NCBI RefSeq assembly: GCF_017348835.2
Contig: NZ_CP071375.1
Origin: Escherichia coli
Lineage (GTDB): Bacteria > Pseudomonadota > Gammaproteobacteria > Enterobacterales > Enterobacteriaceae
Length of the DNA: 64,000 nucleotides
Direction: 5' to 3' (one strand)
Part shown: positions 6,001 through 9,000 of the stretch, one piece after another
Numbering within the stretch: the stretch's first letter is position 1
Layout of the letters: each line of letters begins with the position of its first letter
Program-made: the position numbers

Positions 6001-9000
6001 CTGATCAAGGGTTATCAGGAAGAAGAACAGGAGAGCTATCCCGCCAGAGCAGTAACCCTCCTGTAAATACGTTACTTCATTTTCACCTTTGCGGTGACCA
6101 ATAACGCCGTCAGCAGCATCAATGTGCCGGACAACATCAACGGCGAAGTCAGACCAATATTATCCAGCGCATAACCGCCGATTGCCGCGCCACAGGTATT
6201 AGCAAGCTGAATAACCGCCACCTGAATAGACCCGGCTTTTTCTGCCTGATCGGCCAGTGAGCGGGTGATCCACGTTGACCAGCCGACAGGAACCAATGCA
6301 AAAGTCAGCCCCCAGATAATCGCCACGCCGGTCGCAACGATTTTATCGCTTCCCCACAACGTCAGCACCAACGCACTCACAGCCAGTATTAACGGCGCGC
6401 CTGCTAAGGCCAGTTTTACCGAACGTTTAAGAATGAACGACGAAAGCGAAGTACCGATAAAGCTGGCGATACCAAAACTTAACAGCACCAGCGTTAAGCC
6501 ATCCACACCGAATCCCGCCAGGTTCATATACACCGGACGAATATATGTGAAGAAAGCAAACTGTCCGGCGAAAGACATGAAGATGGCGATCATCCCTGCC
6601 ATCACACCCGGACGTTGTAATAAGCGAAAAGTATTTTGTTTCTGATGCGAGGGTTCGCCTGGCAGTGAAGGCAATGATTTGATAATCCAGAAAATACACA
6701 GCACGCCCATCACCGCCGCCGCATTAAAGACATTGCGCCAACCGATAAGCTCGCCTAAAAAACTGCCCAACGGCGCGGCAATCACCAGCGCAATAGAAAC
6801 CGCGCCGAAGATCACCGACAGCGCCTTCGGCACCGTACGCGGCGGCACCAGACGCATGGTCAGCGACGCCGACATCGCCCAGAACCCGCCCAGCGCCAGC
6901 CCCAGACAGGCACGACCGATTAAAAGCAAACTGAATGAGTTAGCAAAGGAAACCAGCAAACAGGAGAGCGTCAGCAAAACGGCAAATAAAATAACAACGT
7001 AGCGGCGGTCAGTGGCCTGAATTGTCTGGGTAATAAACAAACTGGCAAACATTGCCACAAAGGCGGTCACGGTCACCGATTGCCCGGCAACCCCTTCCGA
7101 AATGCCTAAATCCTGGGCCATTGGCGTTAACAAACTGACGGGCAAAAACTCAACGATAATCAGACAGGCGACGCAAAACGCCACCGAGAAAACGGCTGAC
7201 CAGTTCGGTCGGGTGATGGCATCCGCGCCGCGGTTTTCGGCAATAAATTCACTCATGGTGTTACCCGTGGCATGTTTCAGGGGAAAAGCCGACCACTTTA
7301 ACATTGAAATGTGTGACGCATTTAACGTTTTTGCAACTTTTACGGTGTTGTGGGAAAAGTTCGAGGCTGCTCGAAGAAATAAAAATCATAGGGCAAGCTG
7401 ATATGCATTTTCGCGATTGGGTTGGGGTATTGCACTTGGTGATATACTTTAATAACAGGACCTCAACGATATGCGCGTGTTTAAAACCAAATGGTTTGCA
7501 AGGGAAGCCAGGTCTCATGCAATAACAGATGAAGAGTTGTGCCGGGCCATTTTAGAAACGGAGCAAGGTAAAGCTGATGCACTTGGTGGTGGCGTTTTTA
7601 AAAAGCGCCTTCACCAAAATCGTGAGCGTGCAATTATTCTGGCAAAAGGGGGAAGCAATTGGTTTTACACGTTTTTATATGCAAAACAGGATATGTCGAA
7701 CATCAATAGTCAGGAACTGGCTGGGTTTCGTGAACTTGCAAAGCATTATGCCTTCCTGACGAAAGCCCAGCTAACAGCAATGGTTAACACTAAAGAACTG
7801 ACAGAGATCTGCTATGACTGCAAAAACTAAATTTAAAAGTCCTGCATTTGAGGCTATTCACAGCGCAGCGGCTGGATTGTCCAGCGTCGATGCTATTTCT
7901 GCCGAAACAATGCGTACTTTTGACAAAGCCTGCCTGACCAACGTGCAAGACTTACAACCTGTTGAGATAAAAGCACTGCGGGAAAAATTAAAAGTGAGTC
8001 AGCCCGTCTTCGCTCACTATCTCAATACCAGCGTTTCAACTGTACAAAAATGGGAAAGTGGCGCTAAACGCCCCAATGGCATTTCATTAAAACTGCTCAG
8101 CATTGTGCAAAAATACGGGCTGGAGGTGCTGCTGTAAATAGAACGTAGATAATACGTTCACCTACTGTCAGTTCCGATACCGGACGCGGCATGAACGTCT
8201 TATCCACCCGACAGGTCAGGCGCGGTCTGTAGGCTGATAAGACGAAGCGGTTTTAATGCAGCCAGTGAACGCCCTCGGCAGGCTGAAAGAACGCGTTATA
8301 GCGCATCTGAAAAGCATTAATATCCTGCATTTCAGGTTCGGTTTCGCGCAGAAAACCCAGCGCCAGCCTGACCTGAGCATCGGTAATCGGCGCGGCAAGG
8401 CGGGCTTTTTGTAAAATCCGATGCCATTGCAGCAGGTTCTGTTCGCTACCATCGACAATGACAATTTGCCAGATGAGCAACACCTGCGCGGCGTTTTGCA
8501 GGTGCGACTCATCCGGACGATGCAAATAACGTAAAAATTCGTCACCAGCTGACTTTCCCATTTGATCGACCATCGACTCCACGGGTACGACATCGATATT
8601 CAGCCGATCGCTGAGACGGCGAATCGCTTTTCTGGCCCCGGATGTCAGCACCCGAAAACCAACCACAAACACTACCGCCAGCGTGGCGAGCATTATCCAG
8701 ATCATGAGTTCTCCTGCGTAATCAGAACTCATGATATCTGGAAACCCTCGCCAGTTACTAATCCACCAGAATAATCTTGAGTGCAAACAGAGCTGCGACC
8801 ACCACCACACACAGGTTCAGATCGCGCCAGCGCCCGGTGCACACTTTCATGATGCAGTACGACATAAAGCCGAGTGCAATCCCTTCGGTGATCGAGAAAG
8901 TAAAGGGCATCATCACCGTGGTAATAAACGCAGGCACCGATTCGGTAAAATCATCCCAGTTAACGCGCGCCAGGCTCGAAGTCATCAGCACGCCAACAAA

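Follow-up and report, generated by a model that had tools for sequence, protein, structure and literature searches.

The closest described systems to the locus reported here are toxin-first pairs with an HTH antitoxin. In the HigB-2/HigA-2 pair of Vibrio cholerae (VCA0468/0469; PDB 5JA8, 5JA9, 5JAA, 8A0X), residues R51, R64, Y82 and K84 of the toxin (VcHigB2) are important by mutagenesis (PMC5416850), and K49 is also given as an active-site residue (PMC10098735). The operator of the antitoxin, VcHigA2, has been footprinted as a single 19-bp inverted repeat that overlaps the -10 element (PMC11006873). The Pfam family PF06296 has been described as the HigB-2 family, with the gene order toxin/antitoxin and ribosome-dependent mRNA degradation (PMC11980606). 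The Coxiella burnetii plasmid QpH1 carries ToxP/AntitoxP (CBUA0028/CBUA0027), a pair needed for plasmid stability, and experiments have demonstrated its toxicity and the rescue from it, its inhibition of translation and its binding to the promoter (PMC10098735). In Salmonella, overexpression of relE3ST (STM3777) inhibits growth, the cognate RelB3ST failed in one assay to neutralise this effect, and the antitoxin has been detected by mass spectrometry (PMC4366850). SehA of Salmonella is HigB-like but comes from another family; it inhibits RNase III and has no RNase activity of its own (PMC12817084). Its antitoxin SehB has 142 aa and is 46% identical to K-12 HigA (PMC7160566).

We analysed a stretch of 64,000 nucleotides from Escherichia coli (contig NZ_CP071375.1; hereafter the window). 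In the interval between nepI and yicN, a toxin ORF (7471-7830, + strand, 119 aa, ATG start) is followed by an antitoxin ORF (7814-8137, + strand, 107 aa, ATG start). The two reading frames overlap by 17 nt (7814-7830, + strand), exactly as a sequence-only reading of the window had described, and translational coupling is likely. An antitoxin homologue lies directly 3' of the toxin gene in 91/91 fetched loci, showing that the pairing is obligate; the frames overlap at every one of these loci (range 11-29 nt), by 17 nt in 69. The toxin gene is thus upstream of, co-oriented with and tightly linked to an HTH antitoxin gene, the arrangement of a type II toxin-antitoxin (TA) operon. The pair is an ordinary and already known type II TA system of the HigB-2/HigA-2 type, and RefSeq names it as type II TA in 1,716 of 5,426 complete E. 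coli genomes. The RefSeq/PGAP toxin starts at GTG 7477, giving 117 aa rather than the 119 aa obtained from ATG 7471. In a cross-genus alignment, ATG 7471 is the start kept in other genera, and the PGAP start probably trims two residues off the ancestral ORF. The common O157 toxin allele has lost this ancestral ATG, carrying ATA in its place.

The toxin matches a single Pfam family, PF06296, over residues 1-113 and model positions 1-120 of 120 (E 1.7e-41, 141.6 bits), which bears out the proposal that it belongs to a HigB/RelE-like family; the classical HigB families PF05015 and PF09907 gave no match. VcHigB2 (chain 5ja9_C, sequence verified) is also a member of PF06296 (34.2 bits). Direct similarity between the two toxins is weak. 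BLASTP aligned them over 35 residues (E 0.002), a phmmer search of the PDB sequences with the toxin returned nothing relevant, and a 36-sequence toxin-family profile matched no PDB chain at E<=1. Because these phmmer and profile searches came back empty, the link to VcHigB2 was drawn from shared Pfam membership, an hhalign comparison and the fold search. The AF2 model of the toxin (pLDDT 90, pTM 0.85; elements E-H-H-E-E-E-E-H-H-E) shows the architecture of the RelE-like (BECR) fold, in which N-terminal helices and a C-terminal helix lie on either side of an antiparallel sheet. With this model as the query, Foldseek placed VcHigB2 structures at ranks 1-11 of its PDB matches (probability 1.00, TM about 0.55-0.6), followed by other HigB, RelE and YafQ structures; similarity to E. 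coli HigB was weak (TM about 0.3).

Each of the five VcHigB2 active-site residues has a counterpart in the toxin. In the hhalign alignment, K44, R46, R53, Y70 and K72 lie opposite VcHigB2 K49, R51, R64, Y82 and K84, although the probability of this alignment is only 21%. As direct similarity is weak, these correspondences depend on a low-confidence alignment, and both the fold and Pfam co-membership support them. Across 81 unique pairs, K44, R46, R53 and K72 are conserved in 80-81, while position 70 carries Y in 63 pairs and F in the other 18; K45 and E112 are likewise invariant or nearly so. All of the toxin motifs quoted in the sequence-only reading were found, namely GGGVFKKR (residues 39-46), IILAKGGS (55-62), WFY (64-66) and FLYAKQDMSNI (68-78). 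Within Escherichia, the dN/dS of the toxin gene is 0.10-0.16, indicating purifying selection. A PHROGs search gave matches only to families of unknown function.

The antitoxin carries a C-terminal Xre-family HTH domain (Pfam HTH_3, residues 52-96, E 1e-7) of the HigA-2/YiaG-like type. Its best PDB match by phmmer is V. cholerae HigA-2 (5JAA, 5J9I; E 4e-9, residues 46-101), which, together with PF06296 co-membership and the Foldseek result, agrees with the earlier assignment to the V. cholerae HigB-2/HigA-2 kind. The antitoxin does not reach the NCBIfam cutoffs for NadS (40.8 bits vs 60), the MqsA family (38.8 vs 61.8) or PRK10072, the YiaG model (29.1 vs 110). The sequence-only reading described the antitoxin N-terminus as disordered, and in HigA-2-type antitoxins an intrinsically disordered N-terminus becomes a helix plus a strand on the toxin. 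In the window antitoxin, residues 11-20 are conserved to the same degree as the HTH domain, and the conserved N-terminal positions are A11, A14, I15, H16, A19, T32, R34 and D37. In a fused-chain AF2 model (pTM 0.64), helices are predicted at antitoxin residues 10-24 and 30-40 (pLDDT 87-94), with no strand. This conserved segment may be the part that neutralises the toxin, and the HTH protein is expected to bind DNA. The dN/dS of the antitoxin gene within Escherichia is mostly 0.10-0.16, with a value of 0.29 between the window and O157 alleles.

A putative operator lies upstream of the toxin gene. It is a 19-bp inverted repeat, TATTGCAC-TTG-GTGATATA (7428-7446, + strand), and corresponds to a family consensus of TATAGCAC-N3-GTGCTATA in the cross-genus alignment, from which the E. 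coli copy has degenerated (arms 6/8). The palindrome core GCAC-N3-GTGC is present in 58/79 distinct upstream regions, mostly 42-45 nt 5' of the toxin start, and arms matching at >=7/8 positions were found at 46/79 loci compared to 75/1,580 shuffles. The right arm overlaps a possible extended -10 element, TGaTATACT (7440-7448, + strand). In this -10 region, GTGCTATACT is kept in Citrobacter and Salmonella, and GTGCTATATT in Klebsiella. Since a simple -35/-10 consensus scan of the + strand found no canonical promoter, we treat the extended -10 element as a candidate read from the sequence. The window allele also has a 13-bp deletion in the promoter region. A Shine-Dalgarno-like AGGA (7457-7460, + strand) is located 10 nt 5' of ATG 7471, and ACAGGA is conserved in five aligned upstream regions. 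Just 3' of the antitoxin stop codon is a perfect 7-bp hairpin, GAACGTA-GATAA-TACGTTC (8141-8159, + strand), which has no T-run; a terminator scan of the + strand found no canonical intrinsic terminator.

The module is present in about a third of complete E. coli genomes, always on the chromosome, and about 3,690 genomes are without it. In E. coli, nepI and yicN flank all 1,715 full-length matches, with no match on a plasmid. Exact prefix comparison and local alignment with a K-12-type locus (L001) delimit a strain-variable segment of 827 bp (7351-8177) that contains the whole module and is represented in the K-12-type genome by 41 unrelated or degenerate bases. In agreement with the sequence-only reading, no gene separates nepI from yicN in the K-12-type genome. 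The best match of its 41-bp segment to the module is internal to the toxin gene (7537-7573, p about 0.03), and the segment does not match the module 3' end; this is too weak to identify it as a deletion scar. Downstream of the segment, a degenerate REP (8179-8212) matches the E. coli REP consensus at 27 of 34 positions, a score with zero matches in shuffles; the consensus itself has a perfect copy at 47056-47089, which validates it. It forms an inverted pair with a partial REP at 8229-8249, including a perfect inverted repeat of 9 nt (8196-8204 / 8236-8244), as in a BIME. The empty K-12 site has this REP pair (8179-8249) too, which places it outside the module and in the backbone adjoining yicN. 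The sequence-only reading was right that a REP-like sequence follows the module, but it lies at 8229-8249 rather than at about 8200-8230, is the partner of a fuller REP and, being backbone common to K-12, is no mark of insertion.

TA modules are often mobile, and the module had been described as inserted. A recent insertion of a mobile cassette into an ancestral, K-12-like nepI-yicN interval would fit the presence/absence polymorphism within E. coli and the lack of a convincing remnant at the empty site. It would also fit the behaviour of other members of the family, which clearly move horizontally (85-99% nucleotide identity between distant genera), and the family's copies on plasmids of other phyla. 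Identities of the flanks for this horizontally spread cluster, calculated with free end gaps, proved unreliable and were set aside. However, the same site is occupied in other genera. The order nepI-TA-yicN was found in C. koseri, C. amalonaticus, K. indica, K. oxytoca, K. michiganensis, K. grimontii, K. pneumoniae and the Escherichia cryptic lineages; in Salmonella, the TA pair adjoins nepI but not yicN. Toxins encoded at the nepI site in Citrobacter, Klebsiella and Salmonella are 66-72% identical to that of the window. Third-codon-position identity between E. coli and Citrobacter or Salmonella is 49-52% for the TA genes, compared to 55-57% for nepI and 48% for yicN, so the divergence of the module is at the level of its flanking genes. 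The borders of the variable segment show no repeats, direct or otherwise, and no integrase, transposase or other mobility gene, and an exchange of 827 bp for 41 bp is not a clean insertion. The uniform position of the E. coli copies also argues against a recent arrival, which we regard as improbable. Since synonymous divergence is near that of the flanking genes and the same site is occupied elsewhere, the junction is better read as a loss by the K-12 lineage. From these sequence comparisons, the module has most likely long resided at the nepI-yicN site of Enterobacteriaceae, passed on mainly by vertical descent, and has most likely been lost by K-12, BL21 and others that make up about two thirds of the E. 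coli sequenced. Three points run counter to vertical inheritance. Other members of the family clearly spread horizontally, dS of the TA genes between genera has reached saturation and exceeds that of nepI, and a neighbour-joining tree of concatenated toxin and antitoxin is star-like, with the syntenic copies not forming a single clade, so that monophyly is neither confirmed nor refuted.

Taken together, we think it probable that this is a chromosomal HigB-2/HigA-2 (PF06296 plus Xre-HTH) type II TA operon, long resident between nepI and yicN and lost by K-12. What the data show is family membership, fold, conserved active-site positions, obligate pairing of the two genes, a conserved operator motif, purifying selection and the distribution in the population and across genera, whereas RNase activity, neutralisation and DNA binding are inferred. 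A single promoter with an extended -10 element would give a bicistronic, translationally coupled mRNA with the toxin first. By homology, the 119-aa toxin would enter the ribosomal A site and cleave mRNA under translation by means of K44, R46, R53, Y70 and K72. Such ribosome-dependent cleavage would be expected by analogy with VcHigB2 (PMC5416850), Coxiella ToxP (PMC10098735) and the toxicity of Salmonella RelE3ST (PMC4366850). The 107-aa antitoxin would bind the 19-bp palindrome over the -10 element as a dimer formed via its C-terminal HTH, repressing the operon, and its conserved N-terminal segment would bind and neutralise the toxin.

Several other explanations deserve consideration. The toxin may not be an mRNA endonuclease at all, having instead a protein target, as SehA does, or having been domesticated together with an HTH partner that acts mainly as a host transcription factor. 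The failure of RelB3ST to neutralise RelE3ST would be in keeping with this, as would the greater conservation of the antitoxin than of the toxin (79% vs 69% identity between E. coli and Salmonella), the conserved C-terminal extension with its near-invariant E112, and the long tenure of the module at one chromosomal site. Nevertheless, SehAB comes from a different family, conservation over the 81 pairs extends to each of the five HigB2 active-site positions, and the characterised PF06296 members VcHigB2 and ToxP inhibit translation, which makes a non-endonuclease toxin rather unlikely. A related suggestion is that the pair has been inherited vertically at one core site from a time before the split of Escherichia, Salmonella, Citrobacter and Klebsiella and is now domesticated, the HTH partner having been recruited to regulate host genes (for instance in the divergent nepI promoter region) and/or the C-terminal extension giving the toxin a target or regulation unlike that of VcHigB2, as happened with SehA; we give this little credence. 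Many chromosomal type II TA systems defend against phage, and the same biochemistry could have been selected for abortive infection rather than for stress response or stabilisation of the locus. RelE/ParE toxins have been framed as defence toxins (PMC11980606), and PADLOC returned weak HTH matches for the antitoxin. On the other hand, the toxin had no PADLOC match, the neighbours are the housekeeping genes nepI, yicN, adeQ and adeD with no defence island, and the only match in a phage collection is to a record that is a 515-kb Salmonella contig and not a phage; a role in defence seems unlikely, if conceivable. Lastly, the degenerate E. coli operator, the promoter-region deletion of the window allele, the lost start codon of the O157 allele and the truncated variants that exist in databases might indicate a decaying, non-functional remnant. 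We consider this very improbable, given that both ORFs are intact with their active-site residues kept, that dN/dS is low for both genes (toxin 0.10-0.16, antitoxin 0.10-0.29), and that the Salmonella antitoxin has been seen as protein.

The module has little discovery value in itself. PF06296 is in Pfam, the V. cholerae and Coxiella members have been characterised structurally and biochemically, these exact proteins carry a type II TA name in RefSeq, and the probable Salmonella orthologue has been functionally screened. The useful results are corrections, namely that K-12 most likely lost the module rather than keeping the ancestral state, that the REP-like sequence is backbone and that the PGAP start is probably two residues short. 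Of modest interest is a TA pair that occupies the same place on the chromosome in several enterobacterial genera, evolves under purifying selection and has the antitoxin as its more conserved partner. This stable position goes against the usual view of chromosomal TA systems as fast-moving selfish cassettes, and the natural polymorphism in E. coli, about one third with the module and two thirds without, offers a test of what such modules do.

In comparison with known systems, the V. cholerae pair shares the PF06296 toxin, the toxin-first order and an antitoxin that is about as long and carries its Xre HTH at the C-terminus. VcHigB2 is the best structural match of the toxin, with a RelE-like fold, but identity is only about 20%, the beta2-beta3 loop of the window toxin is 6 residues shorter, and its C-terminal extension (helix 98-106 and strand 110-115, including E112) is absent in VcHigB2. 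The putative operator here and the footprinted one of VcHigA2 each span 19 bp over the -10 element, with 8+3+8 symmetry here (TATAGCAC arms) and 7+5+7 (TGTACGC) for VcHigA2, and antitoxin residues S75, Q78, K79 and A84 differ from the base-contacting residues of VcHigA2 that they lie opposite. The modelled antitoxin N-terminus has two helices, compared to a helix plus a strand in VcHigA2, and the window pair occupies a core-chromosome site whereas the V. cholerae pair is in the superintegron. The Coxiella pair is likewise of the PF06296 type and toxin-first with an HTH antitoxin, and its toxin is 32-35% identical (tblastn), but it is plasmid-borne and the E. coli module is chromosomal. The relE-yiaG modules (Gerdes 2025, PMC11980606) combine PF06296 toxins with YiaG-like HTH proteins that have two N-terminal helices, like our fused-chain model; the window antitoxin scores far below the cutoff of the model for K-12 YiaG, and the window toxin has no extended disordered N-terminus. 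The relE-1/yiaG-1 pair of AIEC (PMC7232551) is a different locus, between yiiD and fdhE. Classical HigBA (Rts1 and K-12 YgjN-YgjM) and Salmonella SehAB also have toxin-first order, RelE/ParE-superfamily toxins and HTH antitoxins, but they belong to other Pfam families, of which the window toxin is not a member, and have larger antitoxins with N-terminal dimerisation domains. SehAB was ruled out as the Salmonella orthologue, SehB being a longer protein related to K-12 HigA. The direct orthologue is probably relBE3ST of Salmonella Typhimurium (relE3 SL3743/STM3777, relB3 SL3744/STM3778), on the basis of gene order, length, domain labels and mass. It has a RelE-like toxin first and an Xre-like antitoxin second, and its 667 bp equal the length of 7471-8137 (PMC4366850). 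The Salmonella pair that we fetched from beside nepI encodes a toxin 69% and an antitoxin 79% identical to those of the window, and the antitoxin has a mass of 11,765 Da, compared to the 11,754 Da reported for RelB3ST.

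Two plus-strand ORFs that overlap by 17 nt, as described in the sequence-only reading, are present between nepI (6072–7256, minus strand) and yicN (8253–8705, minus strand). The first (7471–7830, 119 aa) contains the toxin motifs quoted in that reading, and the second (7814–8137, 107 aa) encodes the antitoxin. Strain PE164 is 100% identical across the region, which lies on its E. coli chromosome. All other genera compared use the ATG at 7471 as the toxin start. PGAP places the start at GTG 7477 (117 aa), even in strains retaining ATG 7471, and the common O157:H7 allele has ATA instead. 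Upstream of nepI, the inverse-autotransporter adhesin gene iatC (1–5870) runs off the window start, and just past adeD is a YicS-family partial pseudogene (about 12034–12228), annotated in the identical strain PE164. The adeQ gene, which lies beyond yicN as the second gene downstream of the module, is annotated as frameshifted in O157:H7 strain Z910 (2572–3164 of locus L002).

The statement that K-12 has no gene between nepI and yicN proved accurate, as none is annotated there in a K-12-type genome. A strain-variable segment of 827 bp (7351–8177) stands in place of 41 bp in such genomes, with neither direct repeats nor mobility genes at its borders. A degenerate REP (8179–8212) and a partial inverted REP partner (8229–8249) also occur at the empty site and so belong to the backbone; the REP-like string reported after the module is real, although it lies at 8229–8249 rather than at about 8200–8230, and it has no bearing on the module. 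Among complete E. coli genomes, 1,716 of 5,426 carry the module, always on the chromosome and in 1,715 cases with nepI and yicN on either side. O157:H7, O145, and CE10 are among the carriers; K-12, BL21, O111:H8, and O157:H16 are without it.

The description of the module as inserted is probably wrong. The pair also lies between NepI and YicN orthologues in C. koseri, C. amalonaticus, K. indica, K. oxytoca, K. michiganensis, K. grimontii, K. pneumoniae, and Escherichia lineages outside typical E. coli, while in Salmonella it adjoins nepI. At third codon positions, E. coli shares 49–52% identity with Citrobacter or Salmonella in the toxin-antitoxin genes, 55–57% in nepI, and 48% in yicN. Long co-residence followed by loss on the K-12 lineage fits these comparisons better than recent insertion. 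This reading has several caveats: the cross-genus dS of the toxin-antitoxin genes is saturated and above that of nepI, the protein tree of the pairs is star-like, and the match between the 41 bp of K-12 and the module is marginal (p about 0.03).

A further caveat is that the family is not immobile. A second conserved chromosomal site, argD-pabA-TA-fic-yhfG-ppiA, has the module immediately next to the Fic/YhfG pair; this arrangement is found in Pseudescherichia, Enterobacter, Pantoea, and other Enterobacteriaceae (loci L013, L052–L054, L056, L059, L060, and L062; also L012, L033, L036, and L039), and in Dickeya and Pectobacterium the module is near pabA. One variant is 85–99% nucleotide-identical across Edwardsiella, Enterobacter, Erwinia, and Tenebrionibacter. 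Identities of 93–99% among Edwardsiella ictaluri, Enterobacter sp., Erwinia psidii, Tenebrionibacter, and another Enterobacteriaceae isolate (loci L018–L021 and L024) point to its recent horizontal transfer. Rhizobiales, Coxiella, and others carry more distant relatives on plasmids. In a Collinsella sp. MAG, two contigs of roughly 1 kb (L015 and L058) contain E. coli-type sequence (toxin 97%, yicN 100%) and Klebsiella-type sequence, most likely reflecting MAG contamination. The PLSDB record NZ_CP141089.1 (hit H56) is an E. coli sequence with the module in a plasmid collection; its length of 4.9 Mb indicates a chromosome filed as a plasmid.

The proposed HigB2/HigA2-like identity was correct. 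The toxin matches PF06296 across the whole model (E 1.7e-41), a family explicitly stated to be HigB-2 in the Gerdes 2025 survey (PMC11980606), and the deposited chain of V. cholerae HigB-2 (VcHigB2) also falls in PF06296, more weakly (34.2 bits, model positions 8–96). At the sequence level the two toxins resemble each other poorly: BLASTP aligns 35 residues at E 0.002, hhalign assigns a probability of 21%, and no PDB chain was recovered for the toxin by phmmer or by a profile of 36 family sequences. An AlphaFold2 model built from 36 homologues was confident (pLDDT 90, pTM 0.85), and VcHigB2 chains took the first eleven places among its Foldseek matches in the PDB (probability 1.00, TM about 0.55–0.6), with S. 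pneumoniae HigB, E. coli HigB, RelE, and YafQ ranking next. The predicted structure closes the gap left by weak sequence similarity. In the hhalign alignment, itself of 21% probability, K44, R46, R53, Y70, and K72 lie opposite VcHigB2 K49, R51, R64, Y82, and K84. VcHigB2 is 170- to 3000-fold less active when R51, R64, Y82, or K84 is mutated (PMC5416850), and K49 is a fifth active-site residue according to a Coxiella study (PMC10098735). K44, R46, R53, and K72 are kept in 80–81 of 81 unique toxin-antitoxin pairs; Y70 is Phe in 18 of the 81.

The antitoxin carries a C-terminal Xre HTH (Pfam HTH_3, residues 52–96), and its nearest solved relative is V. cholerae HigA-2 (VcHigA2; E 4e-9, residues 46–101). 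It scored under the curated cutoffs of the NCBIfam NadS, MqsA, and YiaG models. Residues 11–20 (FEAIHSAA) are conserved as highly as the recognition helix, and a fused-chain toxin-antitoxin model built on 38 paired sequences predicts helices at residues 10–24 and 30–40 (pLDDT 87–94). The N-terminal 40 residues, described as disordered in the sequence-only reading and only putatively so in the free state, are not variable filler. In one protein collection, the 107-aa antitoxin sits in a 90%-identity cluster represented by a 119-aa toxin (P0002), with both proteins mixed, an apparent artefact of the clustering to which fused or overlapping gene calls may have given rise.

Pairing of the two genes is obligate: an antitoxin homologue lies directly downstream of the toxin on the same strand in all 91 fetched loci, always with an overlap (11–29 nt; exactly 17 nt in 69). 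Within Escherichia, purifying selection acts on both genes, with dN/dS of 0.10–0.16 for the toxin and 0.10–0.29 for the antitoxin. The antitoxin is better conserved than the toxin (79% vs 69% for E. coli/Salmonella; 83–84% vs 71–72% for E. coli/C. koseri), consistently across loci L004–L094 and opposite to our expectation for type II pairs.

Alignment of the sequences preceding the module in E. coli, Citrobacter, Salmonella, and Klebsiella revealed a conserved inverted repeat (consensus TATAGCAC-N3-GTGCTATA), a candidate operator overlapping an extended -10 (TGnTATACT), then AGGA and the toxin ATG. The core GCAC-N3-GTGC occurs in 58 of 79 distinct upstream regions, Betaproteobacteria included, mostly 42–45 nt 5' of the toxin start; at least 7/8 arm matches were found in 46 of 79 loci vs 75 of 1,580 shuffles. 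The E. coli palindrome (7428–7446) is degenerate (6/8). Just upstream, where a -35 would fall, 13 bp (AACAAGGGATAAA) are missing from the window allele at 7426–7428; they are present in the majority O157 allele, and other genera have comparable sequence there. Window-like alleles are rare (at least 99% identity in only 19 of 5,402 matching genomes). A second, imperfect operator-like palindrome (7387–7405) precedes the main one by about 40 bp; it reads CATAGGACAAGGTGATATG (6/8) in alleles O157, E69, and E1V33, with greater degeneracy in the window allele. Matches of 6/8 are frequent by chance. A block upstream of nepI (7290–7350, containing GTGTGACGCATTTAACGTTTTTGCAAC), conserved in Escherichia, Citrobacter, Salmonella, and Klebsiella and kept in K-12, is probably a nepI regulatory site. 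The small hairpin TTCGAG-GCTG-CTCGAA (7360–7375) is partly conserved, only in module-bearing genomes. A perfect 7-bp hairpin without a T-run, GAACGTA-GATAA-TACGTTC (8141–8159), begins 4 nt past the antitoxin stop and is retained in the O157 allele via G-U wobble.

Elsewhere in the window, Rfam gathering-level matches identify istR (29757–29886), which serves as antitoxin RNA in the tisB/istR type I system, a ROSE_2 thermoregulator (41646–41718), the ES036 sRNA (47090–47132), immediately preceded by a perfect REP consensus (47056–47089), and AsdA, the antisense RNA of dnaA (52609–52689).

The module is an ordinary, already-known feature, of a family characterised structurally and biochemically and with a probable Salmonella orthologue already screened; its mild interest lies in unusual positional stability across genera and in an antitoxin conserved more than its toxin. 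The exact proteins occur in hundreds to more than a thousand public contigs, under the names "type II toxin-antitoxin system RelE/ParE family toxin" and "helix-turn-helix domain-containing protein". Salmonella relBE3ST (relE3 STM3777, RelE-like; relB3 STM3778, Xre-like) is the probable orthologue, being toxin-first and 667 bp, exactly the length of 7471–8137. Overexpression of its toxin inhibited growth, and the antitoxin failed to neutralise it in the same assay (PMC4366850). SehAB was ruled out as the Salmonella orthologue, SehB being a 142-aa relative of K-12 HigA; SehA is not an RNase and inhibits RNase III (PMC12817084), which cautions against inferring activity from fold alone. Coxiella ToxP, 32–35% identical to the window toxin, belongs to a pair (ToxP/AntitoxP) for which toxicity, rescue, translation inhibition, and promoter binding have been demonstrated (PMC10098735).

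VcHigB2 is a ribosome-dependent mRNase (PMC5416850); compared with it, the window toxin has a shorter beta2-beta3 loop and adds a C-terminal extension (helix 98–106 and strand 110–115) with a near-invariant Glu112. The footprinted VcHigA2 operator is one inverted repeat of 19 bp in total, reaching over the -10 (PMC11006873). The window palindrome is likewise a single 19-bp inverted repeat over the -10, but differs in sequence and spacing, and different antitoxin residues (S75, Q78, K79, and A84) lie opposite the base-contacting positions of VcHigA2. Whereas the VcHigA2 N-terminus is a helix plus a strand, that of the window antitoxin is predicted to form two helices, resembling the two N-terminal helices of the YiaG-like partners of PF06296 toxins (PMC11980606).
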